Assembly (NCBI RefSeq): GCF_003014485.1
Contig: NZ_PYGA01000023.1
Span: 46,160 to 110,159, forward strand
Reading direction: 5' to 3'
Source of the DNA: Murinocardiopsis flavida
GTDB lineage: Bacteria; Actinomycetota; Actinomycetes; Streptosporangiales; Streptosporangiaceae
DNA: 64,000 nucleotides
The notes under the pieces were generated by a model. It was not told the origin of the DNA, searched no databases, and worked only from the letters and a program-made list of their open reading frames with translations. Position 1 is the first letter of the stretch. Each line of letters begins with the position of its first letter. Positions 32,495 through 62,731 of the stretch are shown piece by piece. Made by a program: the position numbers and the translations under genes.

Positions 32495-34117
32495 TCAGTC
32501 CTTCTTCGTGGGGCAGCCCGGCGGCGGGGGTGGCGGGGGCGGGGGCTTGCCGTCGTCGCCGCCGTCCTTGTGGACGCACTCGGGGAAGTCGACCCAGTCG
32601 CGCGGGTTCTTGCCGTCGGGCGCGCCGAGGAAGTCGGCGGCGATGGACTCGCGGCCCTCGCGGCCCCACTCCGCGGCGACGCCGAACTCCATCCCGAGGA
32701 AGCTGACGCCCCAGCCGACGCTCTCCGACTCGAACTCGGTGTCGTAGAGCACCTTGCTGACCTTGCCGTGGTCGTAGAACTCCTTCTTGACCTTGTCCCA
32801 GTCGGTGCTGTCCTTGTTGATATCGACGGGCTCGCCGACCTCGTCGGCGAGGTCGCCGGCGCCGGACTTCTGGCCGGTCAGCCAGTCCTCGACGACCGAG
32901 CGGTTCTTGTCGGTCACCTCCAACTGGGCGGTCCGCACGTCGTAGCGGCCCTTGCGCTCGGTCTTGCCGTAGCTGCCGTTGACCGGACCGACCTGGCCGG
33001 CGACGTCGAGGTTGAACCCCTCGCCCCTGGGCGACTCCACGGCCTCGGACATGACGATGCCGACGAGCTTGCCGTCCTTGTCGTGGGTGACCTTCAGGGA
33101 GACGTTCTTGCTGCCCTTGCCGTGCAGCAGGCCCGCCGTACCCTCGCCCGAGACGGTGAAGGAGTAGATCTTGGAGGTCTTGGGGTTCTTCGGGTCGCGG
33201 TTGTCCTTCTCCTCGATGGTCTCGCCGGCCATCTTGCCCTCGCCGCCGAGGAGGTTGAGGCTGAGCGAATCGCCGCCCTCGTCGTCCTTGTCGTCCTTCT
33301 TGCCCTTGTCGCCCTTCTTGTCCTTCTTGTCGGTGATGTTGCCGAGCTTGAGCCCGCCGGAGCCCTCGCCGCCGACGGACTTGGTGGTGATCTGCGGATC
33401 GTCCATGTCGGGCGGGTCGGACACCTTGCACGACGACATGATCGGGTTGTCGGCGCAGAACTTGGTCTGCGCCCGGCCCTGCTCCTGCCGCACCTTGTTG
33501 TAGTAGGACTTGATCTCGCCGATCTTGTCGTCGGCTTCGCCCTTGTTCTTGAAGACGTAGGTGTCGCCGACCGCCATGTTCAGTCCGCCGCCGATCTTGC
33601 CGCCGACCTCGACCCCGCCGCTCTTGAAGACGTTCAGGCCCGACTCGACCTCGACCCCGAGGTGGCCGGTCGACAGGGCGGTGAGACGCACGGTCCCGTC
33701 GGAGTACTCCTGGCGGATGAACGCGAACTCATCGGTGATCTTGATGAACAGCATCTTGTACGTGGACTTCGAGTACTCCTTCTCGTACAGCTTCTCGCAG
33801 AGGGGCGGCTTGAACGCGTCGTCCTTCTTGGTCCCGGGCCGCCCGTCGCTGCACGGGCCCGCAGTGGGGCTCGGGTGGGGTGGCTTCGGGCCGGCGTCGC
33901 CGCCCCCGCCCTCGCCGTCGCAGTCCGCCTGGCCGGCGCTGAGGAGGACGCACAGCGCGGGCGGTACGTGCTTGGCCACACGGTCGCCCAGCAGGTAGAG
34001 GCCTGCTCCACCCATGATGACGCCGGCCAGCACGATCATCGCCGCGTACTCGATGACGGACACGCCCGACTCGGAGCGCCGCGCCCGCGACCGGAACCTT
34101 GCATTGACGGAAGCCAT
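32495..34117 (-). CDS. large secreted protein with Flp/TadE-type prepilin signal and Lys/Asp/Gly-rich low-complexity body, poly-Pro C-terminus
   Basis: GAGAGGG SD before ATG 34117. Leader MASVNARFRSRARRSESG followed by VSVIEYAAMIVLAGVIMGG matches the G/XXXXEY prepilin-peptidase motif plus a hydrophobic helix. About 500 aa of K/D/G/E-rich sequence (KKDKKGDKGKKDDKDDEGG) follows, ending in PPPPPPPPPGCPTKKD. Both flanks are AT-rich. Confidence 0.55.
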   Translation of the reverse strand: MASVNARFRSRARRSESGVSVIEYAAMIVLAGVIMGGAGLYLLGDRVAKHVPPALCVLLSAGQADCDGEGGGGDAGPKPPHPSPTAGPCSDGRPGTKKDDAFKPPLCEKLYEKEYSKSTYKMLFIKITDEFAFIRQEYSDGTVRLTALSTGHLGVEVESGLNVFKSGGVEVGGKIGGGLNMAVGDTYVFKNKGEADDKIGEIKSYYNKVRQEQGRAQTKFCADNPIMSSCKVSDPPDMDDPQITTKSVGGEGSGGLKLGNITDKKDKKGDKGKKDDKDDEGGDSLSLNLLGGEGKMAGETIEEKDNRDPKNPKTSKIYSFTVSGEGTAGLLHGKGSKNVSLKVTHDKDGKLVGIVMSEAVESPRGEGFNLDVAGQVGPVNGSYGKTERKGRYDVRTAQLEVTDKNRSVVEDWLTGQKSGAGDLADEVGEPVDINKDSTDWDKVKKEFYDHGKVSKVLYDTEFESESVGWGVSFLGMEFGVAAEWGREGRESIAADFLGAPDGKNPRDWVDFPECVHKDGGDDGKPPPPPPPPPGCPTKKD

Positions 34118-34321
34118 AACGGCCCTCTCGATGCCCGCACCACGAGTTGGCATCATGTTGTTTATGGTGTCATTTTTAGTGGCTTTTCCTAGAGTTTAGG
34201 TTTGTTTACTGTCAGCGAACAGGGACCACAGCCTCAATCCGGGTCCCGTTCCCGCCCAGTACGCGACGCGCGCCCCTGCCCCGATCGGGGCAGGGGCGCG
34301 CGTCGCGGCCCGAAAAAGCGG

Positions 34322-35977
34322 CTACTTGCGGAAGTGGAAGATGCCCCACGCGAGGTCGCCGGAGTCGCCTCCGTTGACCCAGTTGCGCAGGCCGACCTTC
34401 ATCCGCTCCAGATACTCGGTGCTGATCTGCCCGGTGAGCTCGGCCTCCCGGGCCTCGGTCTCGGCGAGGACCCGGCCGTAGTGCCGGGGCAGCTGCGGGC
34501 TGAGGTCGTCGAACTCGACCTTGGTCAGCCCGAGCCGGCGGGCCTCCGCCTCGTAGAAGCCGGGGGTCGCCATGGTGTCGAGGTGCAGGCGCTCCAGGAT
34601 CGGGCGCAGCGCCTCGCTCGCGGCGCCGTCGGCCGCCATGGGGTCGGTGAAGACCAGCCGGCCGCCGGGGCGCAGCACCCGGACCGCCTCCTCCACCACG
34701 CGGGCGCGGTCGCCGCTGTGCAGCAGCGCGTCCTGCGACCACACGACGTCGAAGCCGTTGTCCTGGAGCGGGATCTCCTCGAACGACCCGTCGACCACGT
34801 CGATGAGGTGGTCGAGGCCCGCCGCCCGGTTCATGGCCCGGTTCCGGTCGTTCTCGACCTCACTGAGGTTGAGGCAGGTCACCCGGCACCCGTAGGTGCG
34901 GGCGAGGAACCGCGCCGAGCCCCCGTAGCCGGAGCCCAGGTCGACCACCGCGGTGTCGGGGGTGAGTTCCAGCTTGTCCGCCATGCGCTCGACCGTGCGG
35001 CGGCTCGCGTCGGCGATGTCGTCGTCGGCGGCGGTGTAGAGGCCGACGTGGATGTCGGTGCCGCCCCAGACCGAGTGGTAGAACGCGTCGGCGTCGCTGG
35101 AGTTGTAGTACTCCCGCGCGGTCTGCACCGCGGTGGAGTAGTTCTCGGCGGCGTCCTCGTCGGAGTGGTACGCCTTCTCCGCGATGTGCACGAAGAAGTC
35201 GGGCTCCTCGCCCTGGTAGGTCTCCTGGAAGTCACCGTAGGTGTTGATCCGCTGGAACCCGACCTCGCGCATGAGCCGCCGCACGTAGTTCTTGCGCAGC
35301 GGGAACATGTTGAGGTGGTACTCGGACTGGTCGGGGAACCGGTAGCGGAACCGGGCCAGGCCCTCGTCGACGTGCGCCGGCTCGGCCGACACCTCTTCAC
35401 CGCAGTAGTAGTAGGTGTGCGAGTTGCCGTAGGTGCCGTCGAGCAGGGCGTCGTAGTTGCGCTGGTCGATGATCAGCACGCCGTCGTGCTTGAGCATCGC
35501 GTAGAACTCGGCGAGGGCCTTGCGGCGGTCGCGCTCGGAGAACAGGTGGGTGAACGAGTTGCCGAGGCAGATGATGGCGTCGTAGGTGCCGTGCACGTCA
35601 CGGTTGAGCCATCTCCAGTCGGCCTGGACGACGCGGAGGATGTGCCCGCCGTACGTGAGGCCGTTGGAGAACGCTTGAGCCAGCATCTCGGGGCTGCCGT
35701 CGGCGCTGACGGTGTCGAAGCCCTCTTCAAGCAGACGCACCGAGTGGAACCCGGTGCCGGTCGCGACGTCGAGCACCTCGCGCACACCGCGTGCCTTGAG
35801 CTGCTCGATGAAGAAGCCGCCCTCGCTCGCGTAGCGCCGCTTCCAGTCGATCAGCTCGTCCCACTTCTCGACGAAGCCCGTGACATATTCGGCTTTGTAG
35901 TGGTCGGTTTCGCGAACAGCGAGCGGGTCGGTGCCAAAACCCTGCGTGTCCTGCCCTTTGATAGGTCGACTCCTCAC
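34322..35977 (-). CDS. bifunctional glycine/sarcosine N-methyltransferase + sarcosine/dimethylglycine N-methyltransferase (glycine betaine synthesis)
   Basis: 551 aa. The N-terminal GNMT-like half contains VLDVATGTGFHSVRLLEEGF, and the C-terminal SAM-MT half contains VVDLGSGYGGSARFLA. This fused two-methyltransferase architecture is the one described for the Actinopolyspora halophila betaine synthase. GTG start. Confidence 0.7.
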   Translation of the reverse strand: MRSRPIKGQDTQGFGTDPLAVRETDHYKAEYVTGFVEKWDELIDWKRRYASEGGFFIEQLKARGVREVLDVATGTGFHSVRLLEEGFDTVSADGSPEMLAQAFSNGLTYGGHILRVVQADWRWLNRDVHGTYDAIICLGNSFTHLFSERDRRKALAEFYAMLKHDGVLIIDQRNYDALLDGTYGNSHTYYYCGEEVSAEPAHVDEGLARFRYRFPDQSEYHLNMFPLRKNYVRRLMREVGFQRINTYGDFQETYQGEEPDFFVHIAEKAYHSDEDAAENYSTAVQTAREYYNSSDADAFYHSVWGGTDIHVGLYTAADDDIADASRRTVERMADKLELTPDTAVVDLGSGYGGSARFLARTYGCRVTCLNLSEVENDRNRAMNRAAGLDHLIDVVDGSFEEIPLQDNGFDVVWSQDALLHSGDRARVVEEAVRVLRPGGRLVFTDPMAADGAASEALRPILERLHLDTMATPGFYEAEARRLGLTKVEFDDLSPQLPRHYGRVLAETEAREAELTGQISTEYLERMKVGLRNWVNGGDSGDLAWGIFHFRK

Positions 35978-36267
35978 ACTCGAAATGACCCCGGCCGCAG
36001 CCCGAACACGGCGGACAGGGGTGGGATTTCGCCTTTTTCATTGAAATGCACTTGACGAATCGTTTCAAGTGCACCGCCTCCACCCTGCGTTAAAACAGCA
36101 GGTCAGAAGCGCGAAATTCGTCAATCTGGCGGCCGACACCAGTCGGATCTCGAAAATTTTCCAACCGGATTGAAGCGCCATACGCAACTCATTGCGCAAC
36201 ACGCACCAGAAGAATGTGACGGCGTCCTATTCGTGAAAATCACCGGAAATTCGGGAGCCGCGCACGC

Positions 36268-36291
36268 GCCCGCACGCGCACGCGTGCGGGC
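36268..36291 (-). terminator. GC-rich hairpin (11-bp stem gcccgcacgcg / cgcgtgcgggc) about 100 nt downstream of the LCP stop
   Basis: Seen directly in the sequence. On the minus strand it is followed by a T-containing tract (gaatttccggtgattttcacg). Confidence 0.4.
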
Positions 36292-36394
36292 CCGTGAGAG
36301 GCGGCGGGTGTGCTCTCCCGGGAGAAGGTGGGTGGGCGGTCATGGCGGCGGCCCACCCCCTCGTGTCCACGCGGCGTCATTCGAGTGACGAGGG

Positions 36395-37396
36395 TCAGTT
36401 GACCTTGTCGACGTCGTTCGCGAGCTCGTGCTCCTCGATGTACTCGTCAAGGCGGTCCTCGCGCAGCGCGGCGGAGAAGTCCTTGACGGCGGACGTGTCG
36501 AGCCGTACGACGTTCTGGCTGCCCTCGTAGCCGGTTTCGGCCGCGGGGAGACTGATGAACTCGATGCCCTCCGGACCGCCGCGCGCCATGCGCGCCGCCA
36601 GGGACCGCATCGTGCCCATGGTGGTGCCGGAGTCGACGGCGACCGCCCCGCTCGCCGCCTCGAGGAACGCGTCGAGCCGGGCCGGGTCGGTGAGCACTCC
36701 GGTGCTCGCCGCCTTCTCCGCCATGGCCTTGATGAACGCCTGCTGGCGCTTCACACGGTCGAAGTCGCTGCCGGGCAGCCCCTTGCGCTCGCGGACAAAC
36801 CGCAGCGCCTCGTCGCCGTCCATGTGGTTCTTCCCCGCCTCCCACGACCACTCGTTGCTGGGGTCGTAGACGTCCTCGGCGAGGTGCACGTCGACCCCGC
36901 CGAGAGCGTCGGTCATCGTCTTGAACCCCTGGAAGTCGACCGCGGCGAAATGGTCGATCCGCACGTCGGTGAGCTTCTCGACGGTCTCGACCAGCAGCCG
37001 CGGGCCGCCCCGCTCGAAGGACGCGTTGATCTTCGCGCGGCCGTGGCCGGGGATCTCCACCCAGGAGTCGCGCGGGATCGAGACGACGTAGGAGTCGTCG
37101 CGGCCCTTGGGCGCGTGCAGCAGCATGATGGTGTCGGACCGGGCCTCACCCTTGCGCCACGTGGTCTCGGTGAAATCGCCGCGCATGTCGGAGCCGACCA
37201 GCAGCCAGTTCTCGCCGGCGTCGGGCAGCGGCCGCTTCGAGGACGCGGTCGGCAGCGCGTCGGCGATGCGCTGGATGTTGCGGTCGTAGCCGTCCTGCCG
37301 CGACAGGACCCAGCCCGTACCGCAGGCCGCGAGTACCGCGAGCGCGAGGAGGACGGACAGGATGATCCGGCGGCGCCTGCGCTTCGGTTTCCCCAT
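36395..37396 (-). CDS. LCP (LytR-CpsA-Psr) family protein
   Basis: N-terminal basic stretch plus a TM helix (KRRRRRIILSVLLALAVLAA). LCP domain motifs LLVGSDMRGD and SIPRDSWVEIPGHG...KINAS are present. Confidence 0.8.
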   Translation of the reverse strand: MGKPKRRRRRIILSVLLALAVLAACGTGWVLSRQDGYDRNIQRIADALPTASSKRPLPDAGENWLLVGSDMRGDFTETTWRKGEARSDTIMLLHAPKGRDDSYVVSIPRDSWVEIPGHGRAKINASFERGGPRLLVETVEKLTDVRIDHFAAVDFQGFKTMTDALGGVDVHLAEDVYDPSNEWSWEAGKNHMDGDEALRFVRERKGLPGSDFDRVKRQQAFIKAMAEKAASTGVLTDPARLDAFLEAASGAVAVDSGTTMGTMRSLAARMARGGPEGIEFISLPAAETGYEGSQNVVRLDTSAVKDFSAALREDRLDEYIEEHELANDVDKVN

Positions 37397-37885
37397 GTGC
37401 GGTATCCCCGTTTTATCAGCGATCTTGCCTGGCCAACGAACTGCATACCACAGCTGGTTCCCCGGATCCGGGCACGACTGGCGGCACCGGCCGATGTGCC
37501 GCGCCAGCGCGCGCACGGCGCGGCACGAGCGGTCCGGAACGCGCGCCGATTCCCATCCGAAAACCCCGGCATTCCGCTGCCGCGCGGGAACCCCGCCCGG
37601 CACCGCTGCGTCGGAGGAATGCAGTGCACAGACGGGGCCCCGCCCCGTAGGGCGGCGGTACCGCGCGACAGCCGGCACCACCGCCCGAACCGTCCCGATT
37701 CTCAGCGTCTTCCAAGGTGAATGGCCGATGACGGACAAAACGTGGCAGACAATGGGGGAGCACCGTAACGTTTCCCGCCAGCACGGTGGTCGTCCCCCGA
37801 AGCCTGCGCGCCGTGTCCCATCGCGGCGGCCGCACGGCCGCGCGACCGCACCGTTCACCCGCGGGTGGAGAGGACCTCACCGCCG

Positions 37886-38515
37886 ATGGGCGCGTTCGTT
37901 CAGGCAGCGCTGGGTTTCCCGACCGTATTGTTCACGTTCTCACTGGTGGTGGTCGTTGCTTACTGGGTTCTCGTGCTGGTCGGCGGCGCCGAGGTCGACA
38001 TGCTCGACGGCGACGTCCCCGACTCGGGGGGCGCCATCGGACTGCTGGGCGGCATCGGCCTCGGCGGTGTTCCCGGCACGGTCTCGGTGTCGCTGGTGAT
38101 CGCGGTCGCCTGGTTCCTCAGCCTCTCCGGCGCGTCGCTCGCCACGGGGTGGGGCCTGTCGCCCACCTGGCTCATCGTGATCCTGGTCGGCGTCCTCGCC
38201 CTGGCGCTCATGGGCGCCTGGCTGGTCACGGCCTTCATCGTCATGGGACTGCGCAAGGCCCTGCCCGACGCCCGCGAGTCCTCCCTGCACGACTTCGTCG
38301 GCCGCACCTGCACCATCCGCACCGGCAAGGTGACCATGGACTTCGGGCAGGCCGAAGCCGCGTCGGAGGACGGATCCACCTCGGTGATCCAGGTCCGCCA
38401 GCACGGCGACGACCCGCTCACCGCCGGCAGTACCGCACTCGTCTACGCCTACGACGACGCCGGAGAGTTCTTCTGGGTGTCGGCGTTCGACCCCGCGCTC
38501 GACCCGAACCGCTGA
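37886..38515 (+). CDS. NfeD family membrane protein (YuaF/YqiJ-like), flotillin partner
   Basis: N-terminal TM helices and a C-terminal OB-fold-like soluble domain (GRTCTIRTGKVTMDFGQAEA...). It sits immediately upstream of the flotillin gene. Alternative start GTG 37865. Confidence 0.7.
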   Translation: MGAFVQAALGFPTVLFTFSLVVVVAYWVLVLVGGAEVDMLDGDVPDSGGAIGLLGGIGLGGVPGTVSVSLVIAVAWFLSLSGASLATGWGLSPTWLIVILVGVLALALMGAWLVTAFIVMGLRKALPDARESSLHDFVGRTCTIRTGKVTMDFGQAEAASEDGSTSVIQVRQHGDDPLTAGSTALVYAYDDAGEFFWVSAFDPALDPNR

Positions 38516-38620: not shown

Positions 38621-40723
38621 ATGGATGTGATCTCCGCGGGCTTCGGCATTCTGATCGCCGTCGTCCTCGTCATCGTTCTGGGGCTGGTGATCGTCGTCAG
38701 CCGGCTCTTCCGCAAGGTCGAGCAGGGCAAGGCCCTGATCGTCTCCAAGACGAACCGGGTCGACGTCACCTTCACCGGCATGGTCGTCCTGCCGGTGCTG
38801 CACCGCGCCGAGATCATGGACATCTCGGTGAAGACGATCGAGATCGAGCGGACCGGCAAGGAGGGGCTGATCTGCTCCGACAACATCCGCGCCGACATCC
38901 GCATCTCGTTCTTCGTGCGGGTGAACAACCAGCGCGAGTCCGTCATCAAGGTGGCCCAGTCCATCGGCACCGAGCGCGCCAGCAACCAGGACACCCTCCA
39001 GGAGCTGTTCAACGCCAAGTTCTCCGAGGCGCTGAAGACCGTCGGCAAGCAGCTCCAGTTCGAGGACCTGTACACCCAGCGCGACGAGTTCCGCGACCGC
39101 ATCATCCAGATGATCGGCGTGGACCTCAACGGCTACCAGCTCGAAGACGCGGCGATCGACTTCCTGGAGCAGACCCCGCTGCACAGCCTGGACGAGAACA
39201 ACATCCTCGACGCCCAGGGCATCCGCAAGATCACCGAGCTCACCGCCGTGCAGAGCATCCACACCAACGAGCACGCGCGCAACAAGGAGAAGGAGATCGA
39301 GCGGCAGAACGTCGAGGCGCGCGAGGCGATCCTCGAACTGGAGCGGCGCCGCGAGGAGGCCGAGGCCAAGCAGCAGCGCGAGGTCGAGACCCTGCGGGCG
39401 CGCGAGGAGGCCGAGACCGCACGGGTGCGCTCCGAGGAGCTGCTGAAGTCCGAGACCGCACGCGTGCGCACCGATGAGCAGGTCGGCGTGCAGCAGCAGA
39501 ACCGCGACCGGGAGATCGCGGTGGCGCAGAAGAACCGCGAGCGGGTCATCGCCATCGAGACCGAGCGCATCGAGAAGGACCGGATGCTGGAGGTCATCGG
39601 CCGCGAGCGCGAGACCGAGCTGTCCCGCATCTCCAAGGACAAGGAGCTGGAGGGCGAGCGGCGCGAGATCGCCGAGTCCATCCGCGAGCGCATCGCCGTC
39701 GACAAGACCGTCGCCGAGCAGGAAGAGGCCATCAAGAAGCTGCGGACGGTCGAGGAGGCCGAGCGCACCCGCCAGGCCATCATCATCCAGGCCGAGGCCG
39801 AGGCGCAGGAGGCCCTGGTCAAGGACATCAAGGCCGCCGAGGCCGCCGAGCAGGCGTCCGCGCACAAGGCCCGCGAGGAGCTGCGGCTCGCCGAGACCCG
39901 GCAGCAGACCGCCGAGCTCGACACCCAGGCCGCCATCCGCCTCGCCGAGGGCAAGCAGGCCGACGCCGCCGCCGAAGGGCTCGCGAAGGCCCAGGTGCTG
40001 GAGCGCGAGGCCGCGGCGCTGGAGAAGCAGGGCCGCGCCGAAGCGGTCGTGGAACGCGAGAAGGGCGTCGCGACCGCCGAGGCGCTCGACAAGCACGGCC
40101 GCGCCGAGGCCGCGGTGAGCCGCGAGAAGGCGCTCGCCGACGCCGAGGGCATCCGCGAGAAGCTCAAGGCCGAGGCCGAGGGCATCAACGACAAGGCCGA
40201 GGCCATCGCGGCGCTCGACGAGGCGGGACGCGGGCACGAGGAGTACCGCCTGCGGCTCGACGCCGAGAAGGAGATCCGGCTCGCCGGCATCACCGTGCAG
40301 AAGGACGTCGCCGAGGCGCAGGCCGCCGTGCTGTCCACCGGCCTCCAGTCCGCCGACATCGACATCGTGGGCGGCGACGGCGCGTTCTTCGAGCGGCTCA
40401 CCGGCTCCATCGGCATGGGCAAGGCCGTCGACGGGTTCATGCAGAACTCCCAGGTCGCGCAGACCCTCGCCGGGCCGTGGCTGGACGGTTCCGCCGACTT
40501 CACCAACGACCTGTCCCGGCTGGTCGGCTCGGTGCGCACCGAGGACGTCAAGAACGTCACCCTGTCGGCGCTGCTCATGAAGCTGATCAACAATGGCGGC
40601 GCCGAAGAGGGCAAGCTCCGCGAGCTGCTGAGCACCGCGAACCGGCTCGGTGTGGCCGACTCGCCCGTGTCGGCCCTCACCGGCCCCCGCCTGAACTCCG
40701 CCGAGACGACCGCGAAGGCGTGA
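38621..40723 (+). CDS. flotillin (SPFH/band-7 family, FloT/YqiK-like)
   Basis: AAGGAC SD. N-terminal TM helix, an SPFH domain, and a long EA-repeat coiled coil (EAEAKQQREVETLRAREEAE...). Confidence 0.85.
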   Translation: MDVISAGFGILIAVVLVIVLGLVIVVSRLFRKVEQGKALIVSKTNRVDVTFTGMVVLPVLHRAEIMDISVKTIEIERTGKEGLICSDNIRADIRISFFVRVNNQRESVIKVAQSIGTERASNQDTLQELFNAKFSEALKTVGKQLQFEDLYTQRDEFRDRIIQMIGVDLNGYQLEDAAIDFLEQTPLHSLDENNILDAQGIRKITELTAVQSIHTNEHARNKEKEIERQNVEAREAILELERRREEAEAKQQREVETLRAREEAETARVRSEELLKSETARVRTDEQVGVQQQNRDREIAVAQKNRERVIAIETERIEKDRMLEVIGRERETELSRISKDKELEGERREIAESIRERIAVDKTVAEQEEAIKKLRTVEEAERTRQAIIIQAEAEAQEALVKDIKAAEAAEQASAHKAREELRLAETRQQTAELDTQAAIRLAEGKQADAAAEGLAKAQVLEREAAALEKQGRAEAVVEREKGVATAEALDKHGRAEAAVSREKALADAEGIREKLKAEAEGINDKAEAIAALDEAGRGHEEYRLRLDAEKEIRLAGITVQKDVAEAQAAVLSTGLQSADIDIVGGDGAFFERLTGSIGMGKAVDGFMQNSQVAQTLAGPWLDGSADFTNDLSRLVGSVRTEDVKNVTLSALLMKLINNGGAEEGKLRELLSTANRLGVADSPVSALTGPRLNSAETTAKA

Positions 40724-55562: not shown

Positions 55563-55721
55563 ATGCCAGCGAACGATCACACGGAACACGAAGAAACGGA
55601 CCGATTGGCCGAGGAGGTGCAATCCGTCCTTTTCGCCTATGACCTGAAGAGGCTGGTCAGGGCGTCGAAGGAGAACGACGCCGAGGCCGTCGCCGAGATC
55701 AGGAACGGTCACGAATCTTAG
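55563..55721 (+). CDS. small ORF (52 aa) with strong SD
   Basis: GAGGAGGA SD 6 nt before the ATG. The peptide is acidic and helical, MPANDHTEHEETDRLAEEVQSVLFAYDLKRLV.... It falls below the ORF-track size cutoff. Confidence 0.25.
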   Translation: MPANDHTEHEETDRLAEEVQSVLFAYDLKRLVRASKENDAEAVAEIRNGHES

Positions 55722-55808
55722 CAAAAACCTGAACGGCAGTTGCTGTGTTATATAATCCAGTGTTAGGGTGACTACCCATTTGTCCCGTGTTCTATCAACA
55801 GGGGAATC

Positions 55809-56030
55809 ATGAAACTCACCATGCTCGCCAAGGACGACAAGTCCCAAAAAGGTGATTGTCCTTCCGTTTACATGTCCGATACCGGCGAACTCGTCGTACA
55901 GGGCTTCCAGCTTGACGCTTCCGATCTGCGTGAACTGCACAACCCGCTGCCCGGCGAGGCCGCCGTTCGGATCTCCCCCGAGGTCGTCCTGAAGGCGATT
56001 CGGATCTACGAACAGAACAGGCCACTATGA
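55809..56030 (+). CDS. small protein, DUF397-like
   Basis: 73 aa (KGDCPSVYMSDTGELVVQG...). An AT-rich promoter (tatataat) lies upstream. Its stop overlaps the next ATG (ATGA). Confidence 0.5.
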   Translation: MKLTMLAKDDKSQKGDCPSVYMSDTGELVVQGFQLDASDLRELHNPLPGEAAVRISPEVVLKAIRIYEQNRPL

Positions 56031-61746: not shown

Positions 61747-61944
61747 CTACAGGTCACCCGACCGAACACCGCGTAGCAGCGCCGTCCACTCCGCCGAGGA
61801 GACCAACAGGTGCCCGGAATCCCGGTTCTGCGTATCGCGGACATCAATCTCTTGCGATGGGAGCGACCGAACCTCAACACAGTTTGTGTCGCCACCCTGC
61901 GAGTAGCTTGACTTCTGCCAGTTACTTGTAATCATCGAAGTCAC
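61747..61944 (-). CDS. DUF397 domain protein
   Basis: WQKSSYSQGGDTNCVEV...DTQNRDSGHLLVSSAEWTALLRGV is the classic DUF397 signature. It overlaps the upstream XRE gene by 23 nt. Confidence 0.8.
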   Translation of the reverse strand: MTSMITSNWQKSSYSQGGDTNCVEVRSLPSQEIDVRDTQNRDSGHLLVSSAEWTALLRGVRSGDL

Positions 61945-62731
61945 TCCTAGCTTTCTTCATCAGCTCACGCGAGGCATCGGGAGGCAACGCCAAGCCACGT
62001 AGGTCCGAGAACAATCCAGTGAACCTCTCCACGGACTCCGCATCGCTCAGCGGAAATCCTGAAGCAGAAGTTTCGAGGTAGACCACGTGGCCCAAGTCGG
62101 GAACGTCAATTATCTGAAATCCACCATCTAGCCCCGGATGAAACCCGTGGTTAGCAGTGATTATTTGGATAGTGACGCGTTGCTTATTCGAGAGAGCGAT
62201 TAGCTGGTCAACTTGAGCAGCCATTGTCTCATGCCCTCCAAACGGACGACGCACAACCTCCTCGTTGAGGACAACCATGAGCTTTGGGGGACGGTCAGTT
62301 TTTAGTATGGACTGGCGTTCGATCCGCGTGCCCACCAGGTCACCGATCTCAGCATCCGTCGCATCCTCGTTGCCGAGTCGGAGTTGAGTCCGCGCGTAGT
62401 CGGGCGCCTGCAACAATCCCGGCACCAGCAGCGGTTGGAAGATCCTCAAGGCCGATGCGTCGCGCTGTAGCTGTGCCACGCCTTCAAACCACTCAGGTAC
62501 ACCCGAGGACGTGTTCAGACTCTCCCACGCACGGAGCAACGCTCCCTGAGCGGTAAGGGCTTGGTCAAGCAGGACGATAGTGGACCGTTTGGTCGCTTTG
62601 GTCCCCCGTTCCAGATCACTAAGCATCGTCTGCGAAAGCAGCGCCGCAGAGGCGGTTTCCGTCTGCGTAAGCCCAGCCTGCTCACGTAGACGACGGAGGT
62701 CCAGGCCGAAGCGACGTCGTGCGTGCTTCAT
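61922..62731 (-). CDS. XRE-family HTH regulator with DUF5753 C-domain (WhiJ-like)
   Basis: The N-terminal HTH is FGLDLRRLREQAGLTQTETASAALLSQTMLSDLERG. GC content is lower here. Alternative start 62743. Confidence 0.8.
   Translation of the reverse strand: MKHARRRFGLDLRRLREQAGLTQTETASAALLSQTMLSDLERGTKATKRSTIVLLDQALTAQGALLRAWESLNTSSGVPEWFEGVAQLQRDASALRIFQPLLVPGLLQAPDYARTQLRLGNEDATDAEIGDLVGTRIERQSILKTDRPPKLMVVLNEEVVRRPFGGHETMAAQVDQLIALSNKQRVTIQIITANHGFHPGLDGGFQIIDVPDLGHVVYLETSASGFPLSDAESVERFTGLFSDLRGLALPPDASRELMKKARSDFDDYK

Follow-up and report, generated by a model that had tools for sequence, protein, structure and literature searches.

A fused betaine synthase gene of Murinocardiopsis flavida with a conserved, putatively structured leader and a probable AUC start codon

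From our analysis of a 64,000-nt stretch of the Murinocardiopsis flavida genome (contig NZ_PYGA01000023.1, positions 46,160 to 110,159; hereafter the window), a gene on the reverse strand was found to carry two methyltransferase domains in one frame, which would together convert glycine to betaine, and to be preceded by a leader of about 260 nt that is conserved among its relatives. The joint best explanation of the evidence, to which we assign a probability of about 0.6, is that a betaine synthase gene is headed by a leader acting as a structured 5' untranslated region (UTR) and is translated from an AUC codon. Taken on its own, the proposition that the leader acts as an RNA stands at roughly even odds on the comparisons presented here. 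A further step, that the leader of about 260 nt is an undescribed cis-regulatory RNA which, along with a weak AUC/AUU start, controls betaine synthesis post-transcriptionally in the Nocardiopsaceae, is put forward tentatively. Neither the leader nor the AUC/AUU start was found described in Rfam or in the literature searched. For actinomycetes, we know of no study on the control of de novo betaine synthesis, a pathway that costs three S-adenosylmethionine (SAM) per molecule, and of no betaine-responsive or osmolyte-responsive RNA; a leader with two hairpins kept by compensatory change is a concrete candidate for such control.

The leader and its two hairpins

The 283 nt upstream of the annotated gene (35978-36260) have a GC content of 54.1% against 72.7% for the window (standard deviation 5.6%, calculated over 200-nt windows), which places them in the lowest 1% and agrees with an earlier note on this DNA, in which some 280 nt upstream were described as unusually AT-rich. 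Three or four further stretches of the window are equally low in GC; those at about 55600-55900 and at 61750-62300 have 47-55% GC. About 260 nt of the upstream region are kept at fixed distances from the gene in some 20 Nocardiopsaceae and Stackebrandtia loci despite differing flanking genes, and in 19 other Nocardiopsaceae loci the gene again stands alone among different neighbours with the upstream 260 nt retained. Block A (coordinates of all features are given in Table 1) has the family form GGTGCG-N3-TTGCGCAATGnGTTGCGY-N2-TGCGATTCG, in which GTTGCG is invariant; each locus has one copy, placed without exception ahead of the betaine synthase gene, and in almost every relative its fold is an extended hairpin. 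No second copy of block A, or of the palindrome described below, was found in the window. Block B, in which TGACCTGC is near-invariant, keeps a fixed distance to the gene across the leader family and may be a promoter element, a protein site or an RNA segment. In the Nocardiopsaceae alignment, CACTTGAA is conserved at -94 from the gene and TTCGAGTGTGAGGAGTCGAC at the gene start; the unpaired segment TTTCAATG is followed by TATATGCGCGAAGTTTCACCCTCGGCGTCGTGTG in most relatives, and the conserved stretch after it extends as ..TATATGCGCGAAGTTTCACCC in relatives.

The leader appears to be restricted to particular lineages, because the block profiles, searched with nhmmer in 80 loci, matched only Nocardiopsaceae and Stackebrandtia; the profile of blocks B to C matched the Stackebrandtia locus with E 1e-12 and none outside these groups. 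A metagenome scan for homologues of the leader gave a single match (L088). The Rfam scan of the leader that the earlier note had proposed was carried out with Rfam 15 (4227 families, including the glycine, SAM, S-adenosylhomocysteine (SAH), c-di-AMP and Na+ riboswitches), and no family matched the M. flavida leader at E up to 10. The sole matches, which were spurious, were to eukaryotic families at E > 2 and lay in the GC-rich terminator region; nothing was matched upstream of the gene in 15 related loci either, Streptomyces and Actinomadura included, so that four lineages in all were covered without a match.

An inverted repeat had been pointed out near 36048-36072; it is present and is one base longer per arm (36047-36073; hairpin H1). 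Its significance derives from comparison with relatives. Alone it is only marginally beyond chance: when the 417-nt intergenic region was shuffled 3000 times with its dinucleotides preserved, 150 of the shuffles (5%) contained a perfect inverted repeat of at least 9 nt with a spacer of at most 20 nt. The palindrome of M. flavida is not exactly conserved, and its 3' arm is not conserved among relatives. We considered the palindrome as an operator and rejected this in favour of a covarying hairpin, the exact sequence being absent from 23 related upstream regions. At the position of H1, most relatives have complementary arms of other sequence, the 5' one directly adjoining the invariant CTTGAA (CCCAC/GTGGG in N. 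chromatogenes, CCAC/GTGG in Streptomonospora, CCCC/GGGG in N. potens, CAGGTG/CATCTG in Spinactinospora and GCACT-N11-AGTGC in Stackebrandtia), and Spiractinospora and a JGI contig show a complete flip to GGGGGG/CCCCCC. The second hairpin, H2, is the most consistently predicted pairing across 16 relatives and was found in 19 of the 20 loci folded, with differing arm sequences (e.g., CACCCTC/GAGGGTG, GACCCTC/GAGGGTT, CTCGTCGGTGC/GTGCCGGCGGG and GATCCCGGG/CCCTGGGAGTC); N. trehalosi folds differently.

Our evidence for the hairpins comes from an alignment-free arm-swap permutation test on 14 non-redundant lineages, not corrected for phylogeny, in which the arms of each lineage were more stable with each other than with the arms of other lineages, both for H1 (own arms -9.19 against -6.39 kcal/mol when swapped, p = 1e-4) and for H2 (-15.46 against -12.63 kcal/mol, p = 3e-4). 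By this comparison, the base pairing of H1 and H2 appears to be maintained by compensatory change across species. The upstream region, earlier proposed as an osmoregulated promoter or 5' UTR element, keeps its place as a regulatory candidate: it is conserved in the family, and the repeat first noticed in it belongs to a hairpin in which the two arms vary in step from species to species. That the repeat at 36047-36073 might be a functionless chance palindrome in an AT-rich spacer is improbable. The frequency of equally good repeats in the shuffles and the unconserved sequence of the 3' arm are what such a palindrome would predict, but relatives carry complementary arms of other sequences at the same anchored position, Stackebrandtia included, and the difference between own and swapped arms would not be expected of it.

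Both hairpins contain G-U pairs, several in all (e.g., GACCCUC/GAGGGUU in H2 of Streptomonospora). Such pairs hold for the sense strand alone, as they would be A-C on the other, and it is therefore RNA of the sense strand that is likely to fold. The M. flavida leader as a whole folds about 2 standard deviations better than its shuffles (z-scores -2.0 and -2.2). Nevertheless, a number of observations weigh against a structured 5' UTR. The arm-swap test treats lineages as exchangeable, and some clades (e.g., Spiractinospora and JGI_L090) share one change. RNAalifold on the MAFFT alignment gave almost no consensus structure (-2.65 kcal/mol, 7 pairs), a near-negative result that we ascribe to MAFFT leaving the hairpin arms out of register. 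Folded singly, H1 and H2 mostly give z-scores that do not stand out, as is to be expected at a high G+C content; a convincing H1 is missing in 2-4 of about 16 species, and N. trehalosi is without a convincing H2. H2 has no real U-tract behind it and does not cover the Shine-Dalgarno (SD) sequence, and transcription of the leader is deduced wholly from co-variation. With regard to a putative intrinsic-terminator attenuator, the UUUCG or UUUUUCG that follows H2 pairs with CGAA(A/G) at the base of the stem, and a terminator scan did not flag H2.

Three further candidates within the leader were tried and rejected. An upstream leader peptide initiated at the ATG within TTTCAATG was discarded, as neither the frame nor the length of the short open reading frames (ORFs) is conserved in the alignment: the ORF stops after 6 codons in Streptomonospora and after about 21 codons in N. 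mangrovi, and overlaps the gene at length in M. flavida. A long-range pairing of UGACC in block B with GGUCA after H1 is not kept where either side changes. Sequestration of the SD sequence by UCGGCGUC, as predicted by RNAalifold, involves two invariant sides, and where N. trehalosi and Stackebrandtia differ, the changes do not compensate each other.

A promoter scan found no sigma-70-like promoter upstream of the gene, and no TAnnnT on the gene strand is conserved in the family alignment (330 nt). This is consistent with an alternative sigma factor or with a distant transcription start, in which case a 5' UTR of at least 240 nt, block A included, is possible. Manual fits of SigB/SigF-type (GGGTAY), SigR/SigE-type and other extracytoplasmic-function motifs were rejected for wrong spacing or because M. 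flavida lacks the GGGT(C/A) of its relatives. Conceivably, regulation could act at the DNA level only, through an alternative-sigma promoter and operators with a short 5' UTR, the hairpins being by-products of G/C-rich tracts and palindromic operators. We regard this as a serious rival, especially for block A, though a distinctly less probable one. Among the Nocardiopsaceae loci examined, at least 10 have a divergent gene for a MocR-type regulator (GntR helix-turn-helix and aminotransferase fold) upstream, with a gene for a DUF6069 membrane protein beyond it or in its place (linkage to one or both at L001-L004, L007, L008, L083 and L085-L087, about 415-460 nt upstream on the opposite strand, and at L005, L006, L081, L082, L084, L089 and L090). 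Block A could be the site of this regulator, which is encoded divergently in most relatives; its 30 bp show 2-fold symmetry and repeated TGCG units, which would suit a dimeric regulator, and a perfect TATAAT that would serve the divergent gene is found on the opposite strand upstream of block A in relatives. The scant consensus structure from RNAalifold also fits regulation at the DNA level.

MocR-type regulators are known to have divergently transcribed targets, as in GabR and PdxR, and the arrangement in these relatives, with about 415-460 bp between the two genes and the repeat-rich block A mid-way, resembles such divergons. Unlike in those, no regulator gene lies in the M. flavida window or in seven other relatives, block A being kept in all of these, and binding of the regulator is putative. 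Neither MocR-type nor DUF6069 genes were found in the window by tblastn, a search that did find MocR in 10 related loci; in M. flavida an LCP-family gene on the same strand occupies their place, yet blocks A, B and C are kept. Moreover, operators keep their sequence, whereas the arms of H1 and H2 change and stay complementary, including the full flip between C-rich and G-rich arms, and a conserved -10 element is missing on the gene strand anywhere in the 330 nt. On this balance, a transcribed, structured leader is the reading that we prefer.

In the mechanism that we propose, the gene would travel with its own regulatory leader of about 260 nt, made up of block A, block B, H1 with the invariant CUUGAA at its top, an unpaired stretch and H2, the last ending 5 nt ahead of a strong SD sequence. 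At least from H1 onward, the region would be transcribed and act as a structured 5' UTR, because both hairpins keep pairing through sequence change and the G-U pairs work on the sense strand only. The leader would then control expression as a cis-regulatory RNA with a protein, a metabolite or ionic conditions as effector; it might resemble a riboswitch or be bound by a protein, the signal being perhaps betaine, SAM/SAH, glycine or ionic conditions, with a possible link to salt. Translation would begin at a weak, non-canonical AUC (AUU in most relatives) optimally placed after the SD sequence, and such a start may keep basal synthesis of a SAM-expensive enzyme low and sensitive to control of initiation fidelity. 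Like known structured 5' leaders (e.g., riboswitches, attenuators and protein-binding leaders), that of M. flavida has covarying stems with conserved unpaired segments between them, stands directly before the SD sequence of a biosynthetic gene, and moves with its gene into different genomic contexts. It differs from them in that the Nocardiopsaceae version has no Rfam match, no terminator U-tract and no convincing SD-sequestering helix, and is narrow in taxonomic range.

Other lineages were found to have leaders of their own. The Streptomyces loci share a different conserved leader of about 200 nt, and the Actinomadura loci yet another; neither is homologous in sequence to the Nocardiopsaceae leader. 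The Streptomyces leader (GGTGGCATAGA..GGATAGCTATGCGC..GCGCGGT...GCCGCGCC..CCACCNTCTC) was seen at L065, L071, L072, L074 and L077-L079, about 215 nt upstream of ATT (e.g., L065:3798-4021); RNAalifold predicts nested helices in it and a hairpin pairing ACCNUCU with the SD sequence GGAGGU, and it has no Rfam match. Since Streptomyces and Actinomadura have their own conserved leaders, post-transcriptional control of the betaine synthase gene is suggested to be general across lineages. If so, the Streptomyces leader, with its predicted SD-sequestering hairpin, and the Actinomadura leader, both standing before an SD-AUU, would be functional analogues of the Nocardiopsaceae one, and translational control would be a general feature of the betaine pathway in actinomycetes. 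In one Streptomyces locus (L069:7251-7465, reverse strand), a strong match to the Streptomyces small RNA scr4677 (RF02673, 84.7 bits) was found about 1.6 kb beyond the end of the betaine synthase gene; it is probably unrelated.

The start codon

The annotated reading frame of M. flavida opens with a GTG at 35977, five codons ahead of an ATC (35962-35960) that stands 7 nt after GAGGAG and went unmentioned in the earlier note. The duplex of the SD sequence with the anti-SD sequence for the ATC start has a predicted energy of -8.1 kcal/mol. From the comparisons below, the ATC is the probable true start in the window, giving a 546-aa product, and the GTG is possibly used too. The arrangement (G/A)AGGAG-N5-7-AT(C/T) is invariant across the leader family, and ATT or ATC stands at the equivalent position in 34 loci, which belong to five actinobacterial groups and each have a strong SD sequence 5-7 nt ahead of it (listed loci include L007, L010, L021, L022, L029, L065-L080, L084 and L091). 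The same SD-N-ATT at the same distance to a conserved FG(D)(D/N)P motif is found in Stackebrandtia, a Streptosporangiaceae metagenome-assembled genome (MAG), Actinomadura/Spirillospora and nine Streptomyces loci. In a gammaproteobacterial MAG, the codon at exactly the ATC/ATT position is ATG. The ratio of ATT to ATC is 20:11 at the start position against 23:607 at internal isoleucine codons (65% against 3.7% ATT), a bias with p of about 1e-21 for loci that are not phylogenetically independent. Nine loci have no ATG, GTG or TTG between the upstream in-frame stop and the FG(D)(D/N)P motif, so that these relatives have a conserved non-canonical start without a canonical alternative, whereas M. 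flavida has the GTG. A downstream start is not credible, because the residues of PDB 5GWX to which the FG(D)(D/N)P motif aligns are structured.

It is rather unlikely, by contrast, that the annotated GTG is the real start and the ATC/ATT five codons on a plain isoleucine codon. In its favour, about 17 of 19 Nocardiopsaceae loci have the GTG in frame, with GAGGG/GGGG some 10 nt ahead of it (duplex -6.2 to -10 kcal/mol), and NCBI annotates the 551-aa form; it counts against the ATC start that in M. flavida and most Nocardiopsaceae this in-frame GTG behind a modest GGGG/GAGGG could also initiate. However, Spiractinospora has GTA in place of the GTG of M. flavida, a 2-nt deletion in N. rhodophaea shifts the GTG out of frame, and Streptomyces, Actinomadura/Spirillospora and the Streptosporangiaceae MAG are without it and still keep SD-N5-7-ATT. 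Codons 2 and 3 of the GTG frame are the rare AGG AGT, which together spell an SD sequence, and the excess of ATT over its share among internal isoleucine codons would be hard to reconcile with a plain isoleucine position. Public annotations of the orthologues disagree (551, 546, 543 and about 520 aa), some being visibly truncated by NCBI, and the NCBI annotation starts the Spiractinospora protein at ATT (P0028). An AUU/AUC start explains why the pipelines differ in the N-termini that they call (551, 546 or about 520 aa).

Bacterial genes with a conserved non-canonical start form a very short list, to which AUU/AUC initiation would add a stress-pathway gene. The infC gene has an AUU start codon and is under IF3 control, and sigR is the best-known actinobacterial case of a conserved non-canonical start. 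In Streptomyces, sigR has a GTC start and is repressed by IF3 (Feeney et al., 2017, PMC5472188). The betaine synthase gene resembles these in being a stress-related actinobacterial gene with a conserved start other than AUG, GUG or UUG behind a good SD sequence. It differs in its codon (AUC/AUU) and in the nearby in-frame GTG that is possible in M. flavida, and any dependence on IF3 is putative.

The enzyme and its distribution among actinomycetes

The gene very probably encodes a fused enzyme of glycine/sarcosine N-methyltransferase (GSMT) and sarcosine/dimethylglycine N-methyltransferase (SDMT), as homology to both families attests. The 551-aa ORF had been described as having a GSMT-like N-half and an SDMT-like C-half, and matches to NCBIfam and PDB concur. 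Residues 12-271 match the GSMT equivalog NF051855 with 486.9 bits over profile positions 1-259 of 259, above its curated cut-off of 350 bits, and residues 10-268 align end to end with the Methanohalophilus GSMT (PDB 5GWX; E 4e-121). The N-half shares with 5GWX the class I SAM-binding motif I, VLDVATGTG, and by inspection is about 70% identical to this crystallised enzyme. Residues 281-551 match the SDMT profile NF041675 with 411.8 bits (E 1.9e-123, profile positions 6-277 of 278), and residues 278-551 align end to end with the Galdieria SDMT (PDB 2O57; E 3.6e-69). It tells against the full assignment that the SDMT half does not reach the equivalog cut-off of 550 for NF041675; this is by far the top family for the C-half (runner-up 94 bits), which shows homology to SDMT with strict equivalog status not attained. 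Pfam detects two class I methyltransferase domains and a weak CMAS match. Since cyclopropane synthases, to which a better fit had been named as grounds for doubt, do not match better and score far lower, the enzyme call stands. Both domains lie in one frame with GSMT first and with no stop or frameshift between them, and the ORF product is 100% identical to the NCBI entry 'glycine/sarcosine N-methyltransferase [Murinocardiopsis flavida]' (family Nocardiopsaceae). The enzyme itself is ordinary, being annotated and widespread in actinomycetes, with nothing new about it.

By homology to characterised enzymes, the N-terminal GSMT domain would convert glycine to sarcosine and dimethylglycine and the C-terminal SDMT domain would take sarcosine and dimethylglycine to betaine, three SAM being spent per betaine. 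A fused GSMT-SDMT was reportedly described from Actinopolyspora halophila. The M. flavida protein is like that enzyme a single polypeptide of about 550-570 aa with GSMT followed by SDMT, its own activity being predicted from the sequence. It belongs to the Actinopolyspora type, as had been supposed: the orthologues of A. biskrensis and A. mortivallis are 70% identical to it over residues of about 5-550, essentially the full length. Unlike it, the Actinopolyspora and Saccharopolyspora genes encode a longer N-terminus, have a canonical ATG/GTG start and are without the Nocardiopsaceae leader. The two halves of the M. flavida protein each match a single-domain counterpart from end to end, namely the Methanohalophilus portucalensis GSMT (5GWX/5H02) and the Galdieria sulphuraria SDMT (2O57); those are separate proteins from two genes, whereas in M. 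flavida the halves are joined by a linker of about 10 residues.

The fusion had been considered rare outside Actinopolyspora, which our survey contradicts. The top 120 protein clusters (90% identity) are all fused and 509-575 aa long, giving at least 120 distinct fused clusters that span many actinomycete families and groups, namely Nocardiopsaceae, Pseudonocardiaceae, Thermomonosporaceae, Streptomyces, Nocardia, Jiangella, Actinopolymorpha, Stackebrandtia and others. At least 580 relatives were confirmed in species genomes (one genome per species), and the best 80 of these are full-length fusions; among the relatives listed are Streptomyces, Actinomadura, Actinomycetospora and one gammaproteobacterial MAG. 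When clustered at 50% identity, fused proteins fall to a few representatives amid many single-domain GSMT and SDMT clusters.

Nor does the gene serve well as a sign of a halophilic or halotolerant organism, as which it had been read. It is a weak marker because its carriers include non-halophiles (Saccharopolyspora erythraea, Nocardia and Jiangella), and Streptomyces and Actinomadura carry it too; the gene is enriched in halophilic genera yet is not diagnostic of halophily, and should not be taken as a marker for it. In the papers that mention M. flavida, no physiology of the species was found. It might be argued that the enzyme does not serve osmoprotection but acts on other amine substrates, or makes betaine as a methyl store or precursor. 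The SDMT half under its equivalog cut-off, the frequency of the gene among non-halophilic soil actinomycetes and a neighbourhood that includes neither a betaine transporter nor SAM-recycling genes would agree with this. We hold it to be a slim prospect, as the N-half is very close to a biochemically and structurally characterised GSMT, the architecture is the same as in the Actinopolyspora enzyme, and the genera with the closest versions are for the most part halophilic or halotolerant (Streptomonospora, Haloactinospora, Lipingzhangella and Nocardiopsis).

Features and gene neighbourhood

Table 1. Features of the betaine synthase locus of M. flavida, in coordinates of the window.
Feature	Position	Strand	Basis or remark
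Probable terminator, perfect 20-bp stem with 4-nt loop, 16 nt past the stop codon	34263..34306	-	read from sequence
Longest ORF, fused glycine/sarcosine/dimethylglycine N-methyltransferase	34322..35977	-	GTG start, 551 aa and stop
SDMT domain, residues 281-551	34325..35137	-	NF041675; PDB 2O57
GSMT domain, residues 12-271, SAM-binding motif VLDVATGTG	35165..35944	-	NF051855; PDB 5GWX
ATC, probable true initiation codon, 546-aa product	35960..35962	-	comparison across loci
SD sequence GAGGAG, overlapping the annotated GTG and rare codons AGG AGT	35970..35975	-	(G/A)AGGAG invariant in family
H2, lower stem CGAAAT/ATTTCG, upper stem ACCCC/GGGGT, GC-rich apex, ending 5 nt before the SD sequence	35981..36031	-	minimum-energy fold
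Conserved unpaired segment TTTCAATG between H1 and H2	36039..36046	-	at -67/-69 from GTG in nearly all family members
H1, inverted repeat TGCACTTGA-N9-TCAAGTGCA, containing the family-invariant CTTGAA	36047..36073	-	perfect 9+9
Block B, GACGAATTTCGCGCTTCTGACCTGCTG, core CTGACCTGC at -129	36096..36122	-	upstream alignment
Block A, GGTGCG-N3-TTGCGCAATGAGTTGCG-N3-GGCG, imperfect 30-bp palindrome/hairpin	36170..36207	-	upstream alignment
GC-rich inverted repeat I1, 22-nt arms, 86% complementary, just past the LCP-family gene	36257..36302	-	inverted-repeat search

The methyltransferase gene is probably monocistronic and stand-alone, with hairpins on both sides, because a probable terminator follows 16 nt after its stop. 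The upstream gene on the same strand is of the LCP family (LytR_cpsA_psr) and ends at 36395. The whole intergenic region (35978-36394) has 417 nt, the distal 130 nt of which are GC-rich hairpins after the LCP-family gene. The repeat I1 is probably the terminator of the LCP-family gene and the upstream boundary of the AT-rich leader. A second GC-rich inverted repeat after the LCP-family gene, at 36322-36362, is a probable terminator like I1, and one of these two repeats is built of alternating GCGC/GTGC units.

Next downstream of the methyltransferase gene, at 32495-34156 on the reverse strand, is a 553-aa ORF with no Pfam match and a GC content of 62-68%, below its surroundings. Its product has a hydrophobic Flp/TadE-like N-terminal segment, a middle part rich in Lys, Asp and Gly, and a C-terminus of poly-proline. 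The protein may be secreted or exposed on the cell surface, or the ORF may be horizontally acquired. On the forward strand, a 216-aa membrane protein without a Pfam match is encoded at 37865-38515, and a 700-aa SPFH/Band 7 (flotillin-like) protein with a long coiled coil rich in Glu, Arg and Ala at 38621-40723. We would guess that these two are an NfeD-like/flotillin pair.

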